DNA of 9,399 bases from a virus. Taxonomy: Duplodnaviria; Heunggongvirae; Uroviricota; Caudoviricetes. The position numbers were made by a program, and so were the translations under genes. The first letter of the stretch is position 1. Each line of letters opens with the position of its first letter. The stretch lies in IMG/VR virus record IMGVR_UViG_2667527789_000017, one strand, 5' to 3'. Shown here one piece after another: positions 2,796-8,457 of the stretch. Under the pieces are notes generated by a model. The model was not told the DNA's origin, did no database searches, and saw only the letters and a program-made list of their open reading frames with translations.

Positions 2796-3677
2796 TTACA
2801 TAGATGTTTCGTTTAATTCTTCCCGACAAACGCTGTAAACGTCGGTGGCTTTTGCCAGCAGTTCGTCATCATCTGAAAGTTTTTGTGCAATGTATTTGTA
2901 AGCCTTATCCAGTTCGGAGACAGTGCTGTAATTCATCGCTGCGCTGGTAAAGGCCATCAGCATTTCTTCTGGATCACGGCTATCCGCTTTACGCGTTTGC
3001 TCATCATGCTTTTTCGCTGGTTTAGCGTTGATCAGACTGTTCATTCCCGCAGCAGTAGTCGTTTGCGGAGTAATGTCTCGCTCAACACGCGGTGCCGTTT
3101 CCTGTAATTCGTCAGGGGTGTAAACACCGAGAAGCACATCAGGAGCGTGCAGGCGAGCCCATCGTTTCGTGCAAAGATAGGCAAGCTGCTGGCGCGGATC
3201 CTGTTCCCACAATGGAGAGTTACGCACTCCGGCTTGCGCCATACTGATGGTAAGCTCACGGGGTTCTGCTTCTCCTTTAAGAACTGCTGACACAGTTACC
3301 GTCAGATTCGGTGATTTATCTGTTTTGCCGTTAACATTCGACCAGTCACCGCTCCAGCGATAATTCAGGCGTGTCGCTAGCAGGCTGGAAGAGGATACGA
3401 CCGCGTTTACCAACTGTGCTTCGTAGCCTAACGTTCCGTTTACCACATGCGTTTTCTGCGCCACGGCGAAAGGGTTCATTCCCCACTGTGCCGCCTGCAT
3501 GGTCACCGCCAGACAATCGGCAGGTTTGCCTTCAAGATGTTTCGGTACAGTCGCTTTGCTTTGTGACATCAACTCCGCGAAACGCACCAGTTGATTCATG
3601 CCCTCCGGGCTGAAGATTGCCGCAGCAGTACCTACAGTTGCGCCTGGTTGTGATGTGATTGCGATATCATTGCTCAT
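2796..3677 (-). CDS. bet: Bet/Redbeta-family single-strand annealing protein (RecT superfamily)
   Basis: 293-aa ORF; local similarity by eye to lambda Bet (window NPFAVAQK... / RQQLAYLCTKRWARLHAPDVLLGVYTPDELQE / RVERDITPQ versus lambda NPWTKEIYAF... / MLRHKAMIQCARLAFGFAGIYDKDEAER / ERQPERDITP). ATG at 3677 overlaps the exonuclease stop (ATGA). Confidence 0.85.
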   Translation of the reverse strand: MSNDIAITSQPGATVGTAAAIFSPEGMNQLVRFAELMSQSKATVPKHLEGKPADCLAVTMQAAQWGMNPFAVAQKTHVVNGTLGYEAQLVNAVVSSSSLLATRLNYRWSGDWSNVNGKTDKSPNLTVTVSAVLKGEAEPRELTISMAQAGVRNSPLWEQDPRQQLAYLCTKRWARLHAPDVLLGVYTPDELQETAPRVERDITPQTTTAAGMNSLINAKPAKKHDEQTRKADSRDPEEMLMAFTSAAMNYSTVSELDKAYKYIAQKLSDDDELLAKATDVYSVCREELNETSM

Positions 3678-4495
3678 ACGTACATATCCTGTTTACGTGC
3701 CCAGTCAGGGCGTTTAATAATTTCCACTCCGCCCCACTCATCGTTGATGCGGCATTCGTGATAGGTATTCAGATCCCGGCGGAACAGAGCGTGCCCGGCA
3801 TCGACATCCGGCGCATCCAGCTCGAACACGCGTACCGGATACCGACCACAATCAATGCTTTCGCTCACGGCAAGAAAGAAAAAACCATGCGGCTGACCAG
3901 TAACCCTCATTGCGCCTTCGCGGTACATTGCGTCCTGCACGTGGTAGCGGAATTCCTCGATGTGGCGTGCAAAACGGTCCATATCTGCAACCTTTTTCAC
4001 GTCGACGATCACGTTGTGCTCGTTCAGCCATTTGTCTGGACGAATGCGGCACAACTCACCAGTATCTTCATCGTTCCAGTACATTGATGCTTCGCAGTAA
4101 CCAGGTGCTTCCAGCATCCAGCGTGCCGCCGGGTGAGCCATTGCGCTATCACGCATCATCTCCAGTTTCCGCCACTGCTCGGCATCAAGTACCGTAATCC
4201 CCATATCCGCCACATCACGAAGAAATGCCTCTTCGTCAGCTTTACCTTGTTTCGTCCGACGATCGAATTTCGGTGAAACAATGAAGCGTTTGTCGAACTC
4301 TCCAGGCTCCAGAAGCAGACAGTGCAATGCGGTTCCCATATCCAGTGCAGACTTTTTCTCTTCGTCTTCTGGTGCTGCCTGAACCCATTTAAGAAGCGCC
4401 GGATTCTTGGCAACCATGTCCAGTTGCGACTTACTCACGCCGTCACCGGCGTGGTAGTCTTCGTTGCTGATGTCGAAATAAATTCCCGGTTTCAT
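3674..4495 (-). CDS. RecE-like PD-(D/E)XK exonuclease (exonuclease VIII C-terminal-domain type)
   Basis: 273-aa ORF beginning MKPGIYFDISNEDYHAGDGVSKSQL, the typical N-terminal signature of the short RecE-like / PDDEXK phage exonucleases; candidate catalytic residues in RIRPD ... IVDVKK (D ... D-x-K). Directly upstream of and translationally coupled to the annealing-protein gene. Confidence 0.8.
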   Translation of the reverse strand: MKPGIYFDISNEDYHAGDGVSKSQLDMVAKNPALLKWVQAAPEDEEKKSALDMGTALHCLLLEPGEFDKRFIVSPKFDRRTKQGKADEEAFLRDVADMGITVLDAEQWRKLEMMRDSAMAHPAARWMLEAPGYCEASMYWNDEDTGELCRIRPDKWLNEHNVIVDVKKVADMDRFARHIEEFRYHVQDAMYREGAMRVTGQPHGFFFLAVSESIDCGRYPVRVFELDAPDVDAGHALFRRDLNTYHECRINDEWGGVEIIKRPDWARKQDMYV

Positions 4496-4791
4496 GCCGC
4501 GTCCCTCTGTCCATCAAGCTGATCAGCCAGATCCCAGCGGGCGATAATTGCCATTGCCTCGCGCCGGTAGGAATCCATCAGTTCTTCGAACTCTGGACTG
4601 TCTTTAGCGGCCTCCAGTACTTCCTGGCGAACGCCTTTACCTGTTACAGCGTCGAAAGTTGAGGCTAGTTGATGAATCCGGATGCTCTCGATCAGTTCAA
4701 CTTGTCGGTCATATAGCTGTTCTGACAGGCGGTAGTCCTTGTCGAATGCCTGCATGATTTTTTGAAGATTTTTCTGCTGATTAACGTTCAT
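4492..4791 (-). CDS. Hypothetical protein (99 aa) preceding exo; function unknown
   Basis: ORF track gives start at 4806, but the internal ATG at 4791 is preceded by GGAGGG with 6-nt spacing (minus strand ATGGGAGGGCTGATAATG), so 4791 is the likelier start. Stop overlaps the exo ATG (ATGA). Acidic, helical-looking sequence with no recognisable family. Confidence 0.55.
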   Translation of the reverse strand: MNVNQQKNLQKIMQAFDKDYRLSEQLYDRQVELIESIRIHQLASTFDAVTGKGVRQEVLEAAKDSPEFEELMDSYRREAMAIIARWDLADQLDGQRDAA

Positions 4792-4793
4792 TA

Positions 4794-4946
4794 TCAGCCC
4801 TCCCATATCTCGTTATCGTTGGCCACATCGCGAGCTTCTTTGCTGACGAAAGCCCACTTAATGCCTTCCTGTAAGGTGCGGAACTTCCAGCTCATGAATC
4901 CGCATGCAGTAACGCAGTACCAACCGTTGATGATTTTCCACTGCAT
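4794..4946 (-). CDS. Candidate small ORF (50 aa, MQWKIINGWYCVTACGFMSWKFRTLQEGIKWAFVSKEARDVANDNEIWEG), first gene of the leftward operon
   Basis: Not in the supplied ORF track (below its size cutoff). ATG at 4946 is preceded by GAGGT about 8 nt upstream; stop TGA at 4796-4794 lies 2 nt before the next gene's ATG at 4791. Trp/Cys-rich hydrophobic N-terminal half. Sits immediately downstream of operator site 4966-4980. Confidence 0.3.
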   Translation of the reverse strand: MQWKIINGWYCVTACGFMSWKFRTLQEGIKWAFVSKEARDVANDNEIWEG

Positions 4947-4965: not shown

Positions 4966-4980
4966 TTACCTTTGAGGTAA
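4966..4980. promoter_or_regulatory. Operator-like palindrome TTACCTTTGAGGTAA (member of TTACC-N5-GGTAA family)
   Basis: Perfect 5-bp inverted half-sites with 5-bp spacer, directly read from sequence; just downstream of the pL-like promoter elements; an orphan TTACC half-site lies at 4953-4957. Confidence 0.7.
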
Positions 4981-4982
4981 TG

Positions 4983-5008
4983 ATTATGCGTATTTGGTTT
5001 GATGTCAA
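4983..5008 (-). promoter_or_regulatory. Putative leftward early promoter (pL-like)
   Basis: On the minus strand a consensus -35 TTGACA (+ strand 5003-5008) is followed by an A/T-rich -10 region CATAATCAT (+ strand 4980-4988). Exact -10 register is ambiguous (best hexamer CATAAT gives a 14-bp spacer). Flanked by operator sites at 4966-4980 and 5028-5042. Confidence 0.35.
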
Positions 5009-5027: not shown

Positions 5028-5042
5028 TTACCTGCAAGGTAA
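5028..5042. promoter_or_regulatory. Operator-like palindrome TTACCTGCAAGGTAA
   Basis: Perfect TTACC-N5-GGTAA; centre 62 bp from the centre of site 4966-4980, upstream of the pL-like -35. Confidence 0.7.
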
Positions 5043-5055
5043 TTGTATGGGCAAT

Positions 5056-5078
5056 AAAAAAGCCGCCATGAGGCGGCT
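5056..5078 (-). terminator. Rho-independent terminator of the repressor gene
   Basis: Minus-strand reading: stem AGCCGCC, loop TCAT, stem GGCGGCT, followed by TTTTTTATT. Stem is + strand 5061-5067 paired with 5072-5078, and the U-run corresponds to the + strand A-run 5056-5060. Begins about 22 bp downstream of the repressor stop at 5100. Confidence 0.8.
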
Positions 5079-5099
5079 TACTTGCTGAAAACTATAGTT

Positions 5100-5684
5100 T
5101 TATTGTTTGCTTTTTTCGTTCTGGTTGATGACAAATTCAATGTAACTTTCGATCTTTGCTTTCTCGGTTTCGGGTAACAATGCGTAGCGCGAGCGGTCAT
5201 AGTTGATAGTCGCGGGGTCGTGCGGGTGAATCAGTAATTCATATCCGTGACGCCCGAATGCGGATGCAACATTCTCCAGGGTGGAAATGGAAACGCTGAC
5301 CTCATTGTTTAACAGGCGGCTGATTGTCACCTGGGCGACGCCGGATGCGCGGTGAAGTTTTCCCTGCGTTGAAAGGTCGCGGCTTTCGCTCATCCAGCGT
5401 TCCAGGTTGTGAGCCGCCAGCTGACCAATGTCGCTTGGTCCGACAGGCTGAAAACCTTCCTGAGAAAGCGAGCGATCGATATCAAGCCAGTTACGGGGTT
5501 TATTGGCGGCAGCTTCAATTTTTCGCGCAACCTGGTCGCCGATAACCTTCTTGCCAAGAGCCCAGCGGTTTACCAGATTTGCCTGAGTTCCAAGTTTTTC
5601 TGCCATCCGCGTCTGAACACCATTGAATTCACGGTCGATCAAGTCGTTGAGATTTTGCCTGCGGACGTCCTGGATACTTTTCAT
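5100..5684 (-). CDS. Prophage repressor (CI-like role) with two tandem Cro/C1-type HTH domains and no S24 peptidase domain
   Basis: 194-aa ORF divergent from a Cro-like gene across an operator-rich intergenic region. Two HTH_XRE-like segments: GVQTRMAEKLGTQANLVNRWALGKK and ASGVAQVTISRLLNNEVSVSISTLENVASAFG. C-terminus shows no LexA/CI-type autopeptidase signature. No SD within normal distance of the ATG at 5684, compatible with a leaderless or short-leader mRNA as for lambda cI from pRM. Confidence 0.75.
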   Translation of the reverse strand: MKSIQDVRRQNLNDLIDREFNGVQTRMAEKLGTQANLVNRWALGKKVIGDQVARKIEAAANKPRNWLDIDRSLSQEGFQPVGPSDIGQLAAHNLERWMSESRDLSTQGKLHRASGVAQVTISRLLNNEVSVSISTLENVASAFGRHGYELLIHPHDPATINYDRSRYALLPETEKAKIESYIEFVINQNEKSKQ

Positions 5685-5739: not shown

Positions 5740-5754
5740 TTACCCAACAGGTAA
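5740..5754. promoter_or_regulatory. Operator-like palindrome TTACCCAACAGGTAA (immunity region site 1)
   Basis: Perfect TTACC-N5-GGTAA in the divergent repressor/Cro intergenic region. Confidence 0.7.
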
Positions 5755-5777: not shown

Positions 5778-5813
5778 TTGATTTTTGTTACCTTATGGGT
5801 GAATATTTATTAT
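5778..5813 (+). promoter_or_regulatory. Putative rightward promoter for the Cro-like gene (pR-like)
   Basis: Candidate -35 TTGTTA (5785-5790), 17-bp spacer, -10 TATTAT (5808-5813). Alternative -35 TTGATT (5778-5783) with -10 GAATAT (5801-5806). Operator site 3 overlaps the -35/spacer. Confidence 0.4.
5788..5802. promoter_or_regulatory. Operator-like site TTACCTTATGGGTGA (immunity region site 3, one half-site variant)
   Basis: Left half TTACC perfect, right half GGTGA (reverse complement TCACC, same variant class as GCACC). Lies in the spacer of the putative rightward promoter. Confidence 0.55.
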
Positions 5814-5838: not shown

Positions 5839-6069
5839 ATGAGCGATAACGGACATTTCGATTTCAAAAAGCACTGGCTTGCACTTACTCCGGATGAGCG
5901 TGAAGCCTTCGCACAGGAAGCCGGAACGACGAGTCACTATATCCAGACTCACTTAACAGGTAAGCGCAAAATGCCAGGTAAGGTATTGATGAATGGGCTT
6001 TTTAAAGCCTGTAAAACAAGACAATGGCTGAGCTCAAAAGCAGAACTGGCATACTTCTTCTACTCATGA
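5839..6069 (+). CDS. Cro-like small HTH DNA-binding protein
   Basis: 76-aa ORF divergent from the repressor. AFAQEAGTTSHYIQTHLTGKRKMPGKVLMNGLFKAC resembles the Cro/YdaS-type HTH layout (compare lambda Cro [29 protein letters not shown]). Followed by a strong terminator. Confidence 0.7.
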   Translation: MSDNGHFDFKKHWLALTPDEREAFAQEAGTTSHYIQTHLTGKRKMPGKVLMNGLFKACKTRQWLSSKAELAYFFYS

Positions 6070-6124: not shown

Positions 6125-6139
6125 GCACCTCAAAGGTAA
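6125..6139. promoter_or_regulatory. Operator-like site GCACCTCAAAGGTAA immediately downstream of the Cro-gene terminator
   Basis: Same family (GCACC variant left half, perfect GGTAA right half); lies 11 bp after the terminator T-run and about 80 bp before the next gene. Confidence 0.5.
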
Positions 6140-6217: not shown

Positions 6218-6430
6218 TTGAAGATAGTAACCAGAATGGAGGCCGCAAAAGCCGGGTTAAATCGCTATTTCACAGGAAAGCGGTGCCGTCACGGCCATCT
6301 CTCTGAAAGGTATGTTCTGAACGGAACATGTGTTGAATGTGCAATGAATAGCGCCAACCGCCATCGTAATGAATTTGCTTGTGCACTAAAGAGTGCAAGA
6401 GGGGAAACCTATGGCAAGCAGCTGGATTAA
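6218..6430 (+). CDS. Small protein with putative zinc-binding motif (C-x-H-x-H ... C-x2-C), function unknown
   Basis: 70-aa ORF from TTG at 6218 preceded by AAAGGGG 8 nt upstream; an internal ATG at 6236 has no SD. Motif GKRCRHGHLSERYVLNGTCVEC. Occupies the position between cro and the replication genes where lambda has cII, but shows no similarity to CII. 3' end overlaps the next gene by 20 nt. Confidence 0.5.
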   Translation: MKIVTRMEAAKAGLNRYFTGKRCRHGHLSERYVLNGTCVECAMNSANRHRNEFACALKSARGETYGKQLD

Positions 6431-7247
6431 GGTTGAAGTTATCACTCCTGATAAACCTGAAATTTTTCAGATAGCAGAAATTCTGGGTATTGATCCAGAT
6501 GCTGTTCTTGGAAAGCTGGTTCGTATATGGGCATGGGCTGACCAGCAAACAATAGACGGTAACGCTGGCAGCGTTACAAAAGGAGTACTTGATAGACTCG
6601 CTTTTATTACAGGATTTGCTGACGCCCTCATTAGCGTCGGATGGCTTGCTTATCATGACGGTAAACTAATTCTTCCAAACTTTGAGCGACACAATGGAGA
6701 ATCATCGAAAAAACGTGCACTTACGAATAGAAGAGTGGCAGAGCATCGAAAACGAGTAACGCAAAAAGTAACGCCAACAGCGTTACAAAAGGAGTTACCA
6801 GAGGAAGAGGAAGAGGAAGAGGAAGATATATATAAAACCCCACACATAGCGCACGTGCGCGAGGGTGCTCCGACCAGTGAAGCGAACGGTATGCCGTTGC
6901 AGGTGGCTGAACCTGAATTTCTGGATGGCCTGAGTGAACCCATCGGGAAATTTCCGATGACCGATGGTTGGCATCCGTCGCCGGATTTTCGACGGCGTGC
7001 TGTGCTGTGGGGAACGGCCCTGCCGGAACCGGAATTTACACCTGCTGAACTTGCTGCATTCCGGGATTACTGGATGGCTGAGGGCAAAGTGTTCACGCAG
7101 GTTCAGTGGGAACAAAAATTCGCCAGGCACGTAAATCATATCAGGGGAAAATCAAAAAACGCCGGGAAAAGCGATGAGCTTGACTGGAATAACACTGACT
7201 GGATAGAAGGGGTGTGGGATGAAATCAACTCCAGAACTTCTCAATGA
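6411..7247 (+). CDS. Replication initiation protein: phage replisome-organiser-like N-terminal region fused to a DnaT-like C-terminal domain
   Basis: ATG at 6411 preceded by AAGAGGGG with 6-nt spacing; the ORF-track start at 6393 has no SD. C-terminal IGKFPMTDGWHPSPDFRRRAVLWGTALPEPEFTPAELAAFRDYWMAEGKVFTQVQWEQKFARH aligns by eye with E. coli DnaT [61 protein letters not shown]. N-terminal SWIKVEVITPDKPEIFQIAEILGIDPDAVLGKLVRIWAWADQ resembles phage replisome-organiser N-domains. Central poly-Glu linker. Confidence 0.85.
   Translation: MASSWIKVEVITPDKPEIFQIAEILGIDPDAVLGKLVRIWAWADQQTIDGNAGSVTKGVLDRLAFITGFADALISVGWLAYHDGKLILPNFERHNGESSKKRALTNRRVAEHRKRVTQKVTPTALQKELPEEEEEEEEDIYKTPHIAHVREGAPTSEANGMPLQVAEPEFLDGLSEPIGKFPMTDGWHPSPDFRRRAVLWGTALPEPEFTPAELAAFRDYWMAEGKVFTQVQWEQKFARHVNHIRGKSKNAGKSDELDWNNTDWIEGVWDEINSRTSQ
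6559..6577. repeat. Inverted repeat GTAACGC-TGGCA-GCGTTAC followed by AAAAGGAGT (copy 1 of intragenic repeat)
   Basis: Directly read; 7-bp arms with 5-bp spacer, inside the replication-initiator gene. Confidence 0.7.
6756..6786. repeat. GTAACGC half-site (6756-6762) plus inverted repeat GTAACGC-CAACA-GCGTTAC (6768-6786) followed by AAAAGGAGT (copy 2)
   Basis: Shares GTAACGC ... CAGCGTTACAAAAGGAGT with copy 1 but sits in a different codon phase of the same gene (copy 1 starts at codon position 2, copy 2 at position 1), so the repeat is conserved at the DNA level rather than the protein level. Confidence 0.7.
6801..6824 (+). repeat. Hexanucleotide tandem repeat (GAGGAA)x4 encoding a poly-Glu linker
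   Basis: gaggaagaggaagaggaagaggaa read directly; translates as EEEEEEEE in the initiator gene and is followed by AT-rich GATATATATATAAAA. Confidence 0.9.
6849..6860. repeat. Perfect 12-bp palindrome GCGCACGTGCGC
   Basis: Read directly; lies just downstream of the AT-rich stretch inside the initiator gene. Confidence 0.7.
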
Positions 7248-8032: not shown

Positions 8033-8047
8033 TTACCTGTTGGGTAA
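8033..8047. promoter_or_regulatory. Operator-like palindrome TTACCTGTTGGGTAA
   Basis: Perfect TTACC-N5-GGTAA, upstream of the promoter-like elements that precede the gene at 8113. Confidence 0.7.
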
Positions 8048-8066: not shown

Positions 8067-8095
8067 TTGATTTAGTGTCTTATGTGGTTTTTAAT
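8067..8095 (+). promoter_or_regulatory. Putative sigma70 promoter for the downstream operon
   Basis: -35 TTGATT (8067-8072), 17-bp spacer, -10 TTTAAT (8090-8095); predicted start site falls inside operator site 8096-8110. Confidence 0.45.
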
Positions 8096-8110
8096 TACCT
8101 TAGAGGTAAA
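8096..8110. promoter_or_regulatory. Operator-like palindrome TTACCTTAGAGGTAA overlapping the transcription start and RBS of the gene at 8113
   Basis: Perfect TTACC-N5-GGTAA; its GAGG doubles as the Shine-Dalgarno sequence 6 nt before ATG 8113; centre 63 bp from the centre of site 8033-8047. Confidence 0.7.
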
Positions 8111-8112
8111 TC

Positions 8113-8457
8113 ATGAGAAAACAGATACAGGCTCTTGGTCGACTCAAAACAGGCCAGATGAACAAAACAGAATCTGCGTATTGCCAGCACCTTGAGCTGC
8201 GTAAACGTGCAGGAGAAATCGTCTGGTATCGATTTGAGGGTATCAAGCTGCGGTTAGCTGACAACACGTTCTATACGCCCGATTTTGCTGTGATGCTCGC
8301 CACCGGCGAGATGGAACTGCACGAAGTGAAAGGTTTCTGGACCGACGACGCCAGGGTGAAAACCAAAGTCGCCGCAGATCAGTATCCGTTCCGAATCATC
8401 GGGGTAACGGTTAAACCAAAGAAAGCAGGTGGTGGCTGGAACATCGAAGAGTTCTGA
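8113..8457 (+). CDS. DUF1064-like phage protein with PD-(D/E)XK nuclease-type motif (putative structure-specific nuclease)
   Basis: 114-aa ORF; FYTPDFAVM ... ELHEVKG gives a D ... E-x-K arrangement typical of PD-(D/E)XK nucleases. Overall pattern recalls the DUF1064 family of small phage proteins, assigned from memory only. Confidence 0.6.
   Translation: MRKQIQALGRLKTGQMNKTESAYCQHLELRKRAGEIVWYRFEGIKLRLADNTFYTPDFAVMLATGEMELHEVKGFWTDDARVKTKVAADQYPFRIIGVTVKPKKAGGGWNIEEF

Follow-up and report, generated by a model that had tools for sequence, protein, structure and literature searches.

What do the first two genes of a phage recombination operon encode when their only existing label is hypothetical protein? 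We address this question in a 9,399-nucleotide (nt) stretch of DNA from IMG/VR virus record IMGVR_UViG_2667527789_000017 (Caudoviricetes), referred to here as the window, in which two small open reading frames (ORFs) precede genes for an exonuclease and a RecT protein. A first-pass annotation, made from the sequence alone, had pointed out that lambda carries gam (a RecBCD inhibitor) and kil (a division inhibitor) at the corresponding place, and had offered the two products as candidate functional analogues, either a host-nuclease inhibitor or a small membrane-acting toxin. It called both ORFs correctly on the minus strand:

4794..4946, minus strand: 50-residue ORF (PhiV10p39 / phiV10 gp39 / epsilon15 gp37 / phrog_898), ATG at 4946, TGA at 4794; Shine-Dalgarno sequence GAGGT at 4959-4955, 8 nt upstream
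4492..4791, minus strand: 99-residue ORF (PhiV10p38 / phiV10 gp38 / epsilon15 gp36 / phrog_856), ATG at 4791, TGA at 4492; GGGAGGG at 4804-4798, 6 nt upstream

The analysis below suggests that the larger product is a remote relative of lambda Gam, and assigns the smaller one to a conserved family of its own.

The 99-residue protein resembles lambda Gam over residues 32-95

The 99-residue protein is acidic, as had been observed, with an isoelectric point (pI) of 4.71, 19 D+E versus 13 K+R and a net charge of -6; for comparison, GamS has 98 residues and a pI of 4.99. Pfam, NCBIfam and PADLOC, searched with this protein both by single sequence and by profile, gave no match, nor did a single-sequence search of the PDB. 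A word-indexed protein search retrieved only enterobacterial relatives of at least 72% identity. An exhaustive profile search of 1.84 billion representatives added family members down to ~30-40% identity and returned only 32 clusters, all of them members of the family or fragments of members. The family is small and enterobacterial.

The first-pass annotation saw no resemblance of either ORF to gam or kil by eye. For the 99-residue protein this holds at the level of the eye only and fails in profile comparisons. When a hidden Markov model (HMM) of the family was run with hmmsearch against 177,635 PDB sequences, GamS (5mbv_A and 2uuz_A; E 0.07-0.085) was the best match over a single stretch, with query residues 30-87 aligned to GamS 32-91. 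Designer pentatricopeptide repeat (dPPR) proteins, which ranked higher by summing sub-threshold stretches, were set aside as repeat artefacts. One family member, P0086, matches the Pfam Gam model PF06064 (E 0.0042; residues 31-94 against model positions 33-96 of 98). Alignment of the family with GamS homologues by hhalign gave a probability of 81.6% (P 1.1e-5), and 86.6% (P 4.5e-6) with slightly larger alignments, the local alignment covering residues 32-86 and GamS 34-90. Against the real score of 33.7, column shuffles (n=300) reached at most 22.1, block shuffles (n=300) at most 26.4, and the reversed profile 17.9. Scanning viral contigs with the Gam alignment recovered lambda-type Gam genes alone, all of them near-identical, and the Gam profile gained no breadth.

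Searches among phage genomes also led to Gam. A tblastn search of 50,697 phage genomes with P0086 returned 36 records of the family itself, and the remaining matches were solely annotated gam genes: those of Shigella phage POCJ13 (two records; 33% identity over residues 16-88) and Escherichia phage Dewey (34.5% over residues 31-86). In the reciprocal direction, a Gam HMM was searched against 1351 six-frame ORFs from phiV10, epsilon15 and four other loci; 99-residue ORFs took ranks 1-3, all six family ORFs fell within the top 11, and among all six-frame ORFs of phiV10 the 99-residue ORF ranked first. In a single-sequence profile test of the family, 20 other small proteins of PL operons (lambda, P22 and Rac) scored at most 14.5, compared with 24.2 for Gam. 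Profile comparisons were negative for Kil, cIII, Ral, Ea10, orf60a and orf63 of lambda, for Kil, C3, Arf, Abc1, Abc2 and orf56 of P22, and for RacC, YdaE, KilR, YdaF, YdaG, RcbA, RalR and XisR of Rac.

The segment found by hhalign lies in the window as follows:

4534..4698, minus strand: Gam-aligning segment, codons 32-86 of the 99-residue ORF, colinear with GamS 34-90; G53/G56, the EF-E motif and helix-break positions are common to both

The overall alignment is colinear from residues 32-95 against GamS 34-97, and the most conserved features of each family coincide. These are an invariant glycine (G53/G56), a (D/E)-x-x-E-F-(E/Q)-E motif and a C-terminal I-D-S; helix breaks containing Pro or Gly coincide as well. 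The AlphaFold2 model is all-helical (helices at 3-50, 56-62 and 66-98) and of low confidence, with a predicted local distance difference test score (pLDDT) of 67.6 and a predicted template modelling score (pTM) of 0.33. The long N-terminal helix in this model agrees with the description of GamS, for which such a helix has been reported (PMC5218532). It thus appears that the suggestion of a Gam-type host-nuclease inhibitor can be taken beyond positional analogy, since the remote similarity to lambda Gam is both significant and colinear. We consider it probable that the 99-residue protein is homologous to Gam, and put the full functional claim, that it is a RecBCD-inhibiting protein of the Gam type, at about 60%. 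The family looks like a divergent Gam subfamily overlooked by current models; its member is called 'hypothetical' even in the HHpred-annotated RefSeq record of epsilon15.

Several observations weigh against a Gam-type inhibitor. No family member reaches the gathering score of PF06064 (best 17.7 versus 25 bits). Only one of 16 members, P0086, matches Gam, the window protein giving no match at E<=0.1, and HMMER E-values for GamS in the PDB are only ~0.07. Alignment of the first 30 residues is unconvincing (hhalign -glob probability 14%), and in Gam this region is the helix that plugs the single-stranded DNA (ssDNA) channel of RecB (PMC5218532). Foldseek searches of the PDB and BFVD with the low-confidence monomer model returned no match at E<1, Gam included. 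A further point concerns the distribution of Chi sites. Strong avoidance of Chi, at observed/expected ratios of 0-0.3, has been reported for lambdoid phages that carry Gam or Abc2 (Bobay et al., PMC3784561), whereas phages that are recombinase-positive and inhibitor-negative over-represent it (PMC3784561). The complete genome of phiV10 (L094) contains 8 Chi sites versus 1.3-5.0 expected, according to Markov order, and that of epsilon15 (L095) contains 6 versus 3.2-4.2 expected. The pattern is opposite to that of a classical Gam phage, though Chi avoidance is linked to the family by statistical correlation and does not define it. These counts may in part reflect codon usage on the gene-rich strand. 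The Chi sites (GCTGGTGG) are all on the plus strand, 8/8 in phiV10 and 6/6 in epsilon15; in the window, one is found within the integrase gene, at 865-872.

An alternative is that the protein is not a RecBCD inhibitor at all and resembles Gam either because it shares an ancient ancestry with Gam and has changed function, or because small acidic helical proteins have converged. It might then be an accessory of the exonuclease or RecT, like Arf of P22 or the 'h' proteins encoded in Burkholderia RecET operons, or might target SbcCD or a defence nuclease. The sub-threshold Pfam match, the unalignable N-terminal helix, the failure of Foldseek to retrieve Gam with the low-confidence model, and the lack of Chi avoidance in phiV10 and epsilon15 (compare PMC3784561) all fit this alternative, as does the report that uncharacterised small proteins of RecET operons boost recombination in the native host (PMC8313284). 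However, across 177,635 PDB sequences, 50,697 phage genomes and the 20 positional analogues the similarity singles out Gam, and the colinearity of ~60 residues takes in the invariant motifs of each family. The protein also lacks similarity to Arf, Abc1 and Abc2, and its gene keeps its position when the exonuclease type is swapped (see below), which argues against a dedicated subunit. We regard this alternative, taken as a whole, as unlikely.

Both small ORFs are conserved, protein-coding genes

Each ORF matches a PHROG of 'unknown function' over its full length: phrog_898 for the 50-residue ORF (E 1.9e-38) and phrog_856 for the 99-residue ORF (E 7e-55). Both are labelled hypothetical protein in phiV10, epsilon15 and RefSeq, and literature searches by accession, locus tag and peptide sequence found no paper mentioning either protein. 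The window copies were compared with those of Klebsiella, Erwinia and Enterobacter. Over codons 1-26 of the 50-residue ORF, the proportion of synonymous differences (pS) is 0.48-0.72 and that of nonsynonymous differences (pN) 0.05-0.09; the ratio of nonsynonymous to synonymous substitution rates (dN/dS) of the 99-residue ORF is 0.09-0.20. Because pS is far above pN, the constraint acts on the protein and not on an overlapping DNA or RNA signal. An Rfam scan of the window matched no family.

These values bear on whether the 50-residue ORF is functional, or is instead a translated leader or a chance ORF lying over a regulatory DNA or RNA element of the PL region. The ORF is very short and begins ~25 nt downstream of the predicted transcription start, and AlphaFold proposes no confident fold for it (pLDDT 56). 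However, its synonymous sites are near saturation while the protein is almost invariant (pS up to 0.72 versus pN 0.05), a sign of constraint at the protein level, and it has a good Shine-Dalgarno sequence, no Rfam match and a PHROG family conserved over the full length. We judge a non-functional ORF to be extremely improbable; the strong in-frame purifying selection indirectly contradicts a scenario in which it would not be translated.

The ATGA-type coupling that had been proposed for the whole operon head applies to the 99-residue gene and the exonuclease gene, where stop and start overlap (4495-4492), but not to the junction between the two small ORFs, which reads TGAtaATG and leaves a 2-nt gap. 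In the Klebsiella, Erwinia and Enterobacter versions, the GTG start of the 99-residue homologue overlaps the stop of the 50-residue ORF (GTGA). A longer, 104-residue reading of the larger ORF, from a start at 4806, was rejected; homologues begin MN(V/I)(N/Q)QQ, and the extension is non-conserved and overlaps the 50-residue ORF.

The 50-residue protein had been described as a Trp/Cys-rich hydrophobic peptide. The composition is borne out (5 Trp, 2 Cys) but the hydrophobicity is not: the pI is 6.1, the grand average of hydropathy (GRAVY) is -0.29, and the maximum 19-residue Kyte-Doolittle mean, 0.57, falls short of a transmembrane-grade segment. Judged by its sequence, the protein is Trp-rich and soluble, neither hydrophobic nor a transmembrane peptide, and the idea of a small membrane-acting toxin finds no support. 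Hardly any variation is seen in the first 26 residues (MQWKIINGWYCVTACG-x-MSWKFRTL); these are followed by another conserved stretch, E-A/G-I-x-W-A-F-V-S-K, whereas the final 12-15 residues vary freely. The second Cys is substituted in the copy of Pseudescherichia vulneris, so that the protein does not depend on a CxxxC metal or disulfide site. The AlphaFold2 model, a single long helix with a pLDDT of 56.2, is not credible.

No match to the 50-residue protein was found in Pfam (all 22 family members, E up to 10), NCBIfam, PADLOC or the PDB. PDB matches to 'Bagel' proteins were dismissed as repeat-protein artefacts without an individually significant stretch. The hhalign probability was at most 0.2% for lambda Kil, P22 Kil and Rac KilR, and at most 0.5% for lambda cIII and P22 C3 (the conserved amphipathic helix region of cIII). 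Profile comparisons with the other small proteins of the lambda, P22 and Rac leftward operons, Arf, Ral, YdaE, YdaF and YdaG being among the 20, were likewise negative. The earlier impression that this ORF does not resemble kil was therefore correct, and no relative outside its own family emerged when Pfam, the PDB and the positional analogues were searched. An F-x-T-x-x-x-A-x-x-W motif apparently in common with YdaF/DUF1391 and DUF2188 was noticed by eye, gained no support from searches, and was dropped. We take the 50-residue protein to be a genuine, very strongly conserved soluble small protein without known relatives.

As to its role, we can offer two low-confidence guesses, in our view the likeliest readings. 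The protein may be a Kil-type early factor directed at the host, such as an inhibitor of FtsZ-ring assembly acting in host shutoff, encoded in the slot that holds unrelated division inhibitors in lambda, P22 and Rac. Its 50 residues compare with 47 in lambda Kil, 62 in P22 Kil and 73 in Rac KilR, all of them products of leftward early operons encoded upstream of recombination genes. The known Kils, with their sequences laid side by side, are mutually dissimilar by eye, so dissimilarity here is not counter-evidence, and a host target that is itself highly conserved would fit the very strong conservation of residues 1-26 among the Escherichia, Klebsiella and Erwinia copies. Yet the argument is purely positional, no similarity to any Kil was detected, and the ORF is the first after the promoter, unlike lambda kil; we hold a Kil-type role to be doubtful. 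A different guess, which we also treat as doubtful, is that the 50-residue protein aids or protects the Gam-like function, as a partner, a modulator, or a counter-measure to systems that sense RecBCD inhibition. The two genes co-occur in 36/36 phage records from the 50,697 phage genomes searched, they are adjacent or overlapping (TGAtaATG here, GTGA in relatives), and the pair remains intact across replacement of the exonuclease/RecT module. Defence systems are known to monitor RecBCD inhibition (PMC9836394; OLD and Gabija preprints). On the other hand, the co-occurrence may merely mirror one conserved early module in a single phage lineage, unrelated ORFs have been inserted between the two genes in some phages, and canonical Gam works without a partner (PMC5218532). 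A bolder version seems quite improbable to us: that the 50-residue protein founds a new class of small effectors tied to RecBCD inhibition, which would extend the reach of the Gam-like protein (for example to a second nuclease) or disarm systems that 'guard' RecBCD. Were it true, the pair, and not Gam alone, would be the anti-nuclease unit of epsilon15-like phages and of ~10% of E. coli genomes.

Genomic setting of the pair

The 701 bases around the small-ORF pair are 95-97% identical to the early regions of TL-2011b, phiV10 and other Uetakevirus (epsilon15-like) podophages, and the window corresponds to the early region of an E. coli prophage of the phiV10/epsilon15-like (Uetakevirus) group. 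This 701-base stretch, with the promoter and both ORFs contiguous, was found in 563 of 5426 complete E. coli genomes (~10%); 512 of the 563 hold at least 80% of it. The order of genes in the window is that of the annotated phiV10 region and of a RefSeq E. coli prophage:

Minus strand, in order: repressor, terminator, 50-residue ORF, 99-residue ORF, RecE-like exonuclease, RecT, AlpA-type excisionase/regulator, PerC-like activator, MT-A70 methylase
Plus strand: integrase

The window also contains, at 6393-7247, a frame that corresponds to the gene annotated in phiV10 and the E. coli prophage for DnaT-like replication initiation, and that carries an EEEEEEEE run mid-frame.

Between the repressor gene and the 50-residue ORF lie the predicted control elements of the operon:

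5100..5684, minus strand: gene for a CI-type repressor with two helix-turn-helix (HTH) domains, PhiV10p40 homologue (Pfam HTH_3 and YdaS_toxin/HTH matches, phrog_8), directly upstream of the operon
5060..5079, minus strand: intrinsic terminator of the repressor transcript, an 8-bp GC-rich stem followed by a T run; a terminator is annotated in phiV10 too
5028..5042, no strand: operator-like palindrome TTACCTGCAAGGTAA, upstream of the -35 hexamer
4980..5008, minus strand: predicted PL-like sigma-70 promoter, TTGACA / 17 nt / AATCAT, 10/12 consensus match
4966..4980, no strand: operator-like palindrome TTACCTTTGAGGTAA, abutting the -10 hexamer, an exact palindrome match

Two exact copies of the 15-bp palindrome TTACCTNNNAGGTAA flank or overlap the PL-like promoter, and with up to 2 mismatches allowed the window holds 8 sites versus 0.22 expected (4966-4980, 5028-5042, 5740-5754, 5788-5802, 5949-5963, 6125-6139, 8033-8047 and 8095-8109). 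In epsilon15, repressor-binding sites are annotated at the equivalent place. The promoter would drive the early-left operon. Given the placement of promoter, operators and terminator, the 50-residue ORF is predicted to be the first cistron of a repressor-controlled operon of the PL type. The analogy to the position of gam and kil in lambda is accordingly only approximate; the 50-residue ORF, first after the PL-like promoter, stands in the slot of lambda N. Two copies of TTACCTNNNAGGTAA lie between the repressor gene and a cro-like gene, and two distant copies just upstream of a DUF1064 gene (8113-8457) suggest a third repressor-controlled promoter.

Homologues of the repressor gene carry that label in the phiV10 and epsilon15 annotation, and in vB_EcoP_ZX5 the repressor role of the homologue has been established experimentally (PMC9782041). 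The HTH domains lie at residues ~20-60 and ~105-148, and a LexA/S24 peptidase domain could not be recognised, in keeping with the antirepressor-based induction reported for the related phage vB_EcoP_ZX5 (PMC9782041).

If the 99-residue protein is a Gam-type inhibitor, events might proceed as follows. On infection or induction the repressor would leave its operators and the PL-like promoter would fire. First to be made would be the 50-residue and Gam-like proteins, their translation linked to that of the exonuclease and RecT. We infer that the Gam-like protein, as a small acidic all-helical mimic of a DNA end, probably dimeric and with a DNA-like surface, would occupy the DNA-end-binding site of host RecBCD and inhibit the enzyme. 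Linear phage DNA and recombination intermediates would then survive and be processed by the phage's own exonuclease and RecT.

The genes downstream of the pair had been taken for an exo/bet pair of the lambda type, but they encode different proteins:

3674..4495, minus strand: RecE-like PD-(D/E)XK exonuclease (DUF3799; Pfam PF12684, E 2.7e-22; NCBIfam exodeoxyribonuclease VIII C-terminal region, E 8.6e-92; phrog_412)
2796..3677, minus strand: RecT single-strand annealing protein (Pfam RecT, E 1.3e-31; phrog_561), its start overlapping the exonuclease stop

In every relative inspected, the 99-residue gene adjoins the exonuclease gene from upstream. The type of exonuclease varies. The DUF3799 RecE-like enzyme follows the small-ORF pair in the window, phiV10, BUCT554, C. 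braakii and one metagenomic contig, while an enzyme of the YqaJ/lambda-exo type with a different RecT follows it in epsilon15, K. pneumoniae ATCC 13883, Ca. Erwinia dacicola and P. vulneris. The 99-residue gene stays while the nuclease module is exchanged, which fits a function directed at the host and fits less well a subunit of a single exonuclease. The swap of unrelated exonuclease types can be followed by comparing window 3674-4495 with L004 4297-5196, L006 4432-5331, L007 4297-5196 and L095 31113-32012; the 3' end of the 99-residue gene forms a clear mosaic joint, and each exonuclease type brings its own RecT variant.

Other variations on the arrangement were seen. The space between the 50-residue and 99-residue genes serves as an insertion slot, which holds a 344-residue ORF without a Pfam match in phiv142-3 (Orf45, L096 961-1995) and a 57-residue ORF in a metagenomic contig (L091 3147-3320). 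In P. vulneris the slot (L006 ~3860-4029) holds a reading frame that resembles, by eye only, the 57-residue ORF of that contig. The inserted ORFs are candidate morons, and their presence between the small ORFs implies that tight translational coupling is not obligatory. The Gam-like domain of P. vulneris (L006 3995-4435) has an additional C-terminal extension of ~47 residues, for a total of 146. In the phiV10 RefSeq record the exonuclease and RecT are given as a single 1761-nt 'RecE-RecT fusion' coding sequence (L001 3336-5096); in the window (2796-4495) and in other relatives they are two genes with a 4-nt overlap. The single phiV10 coding sequence may be a genuine fusion, or else may reflect a frameshift or a difference in annotation.

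Significance and comparison with known systems

If the 99-residue protein works as Gam does, an unrecognised RecBCD inhibitor is present across the podophage lineage of epsilon15, phiV10, SPN1S and their Klebsiella and Enterobacter relatives. These phages, and the prophages in about one tenth of complete E. coli genomes, would at present be scored as 'recombinase-positive, inhibitor-negative' and yet carry an inhibitor, and analyses of Chi content versus recombination strategy (PMC3784561) would change, with this lineage an exception to the rule of Chi avoidance. Structure-function studies of RecBCD inhibition would also gain a natural variant of Gam whose N-terminal helix differs, and recombineering would gain a native cassette of RecE/RecT plus inhibitor. 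The 50-residue protein is among the most conserved products of the early region, has no known relative, and is a cheap and well-defined target for toxicity and interaction screens. The finding is useful for annotation, for Chi and recombination statistics and for recombineering; it introduces no new principle.

Among known systems, the FtsZ-directed proteins lambda Kil, P22 Kil and Rac KilR resemble the 50-residue protein alone, in their small size (47-73 residues) and in being encoded in a leftward early operon upstream of recombination genes. The 50-residue protein differs from them in lacking any sequence or profile similarity, in its 5 Trp, in its pI (6.1 versus 9.6 for lambda Kil) and in being the first cistron. 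P22 Abc2 and Abc1 and T7 gp5.9 are like the 99-residue protein in being small early proteins encoded beside recombination genes, with the same presumed target. Abc1 and Abc2 have no similarity to it, and T7 gp5.9 is likened by description only. Abc2 hijacks RecBCD instead of blocking it (PMC9836394). The 'h/e' proteins of Burkholderia RecET systems offer another parallel, again by description only: they are small hypothetical proteins encoded within RecE/RecT operons (PMC8313284), although downstream of recT and not at the operon's head. In the native host they are of importance for recombination, and they have been proposed to act like Gam (Red-gamma) (PMC8313284). Since small proteins of RecET operons are already known to matter, the Gam-like idea is in itself unsurprising.

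The closest comparison is with lambda Gam (GamS, PF06064; 2UUZ, 5MBV). The two differ in that identity in the aligned core is ~22% and the match stays below the Pfam gathering score, in that the 99-residue protein's N-terminal helix has no sequence similarity to the plug that Gam inserts into the RecB ssDNA channel, and in that the phages that encode it, phiV10 and epsilon15, do not avoid Chi. The partners differ too: the 99-residue gene is linked to a RecE-like or YqaJ exonuclease and RecT in epsilon15-type podophages, Gam to Exo and Bet in siphoviral lambdoids. Their likeness lies in a length of ~98 residues, an acidic composition (pI 4.7 versus 5.0), an all-helical secondary structure (predicted by a low-confidence model for the 99-residue protein), and a gene placed directly upstream of recombination genes in a repressor-controlled leftward early operon. 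It extends to G53/G56, the D/E-x-x-E-F-(E/Q)-E motif, a hydrophobic I-A close to where the last helix ends and a C-terminal (D/Q)-I-D-S, and each family is the reciprocal best match of the other in profile searches.

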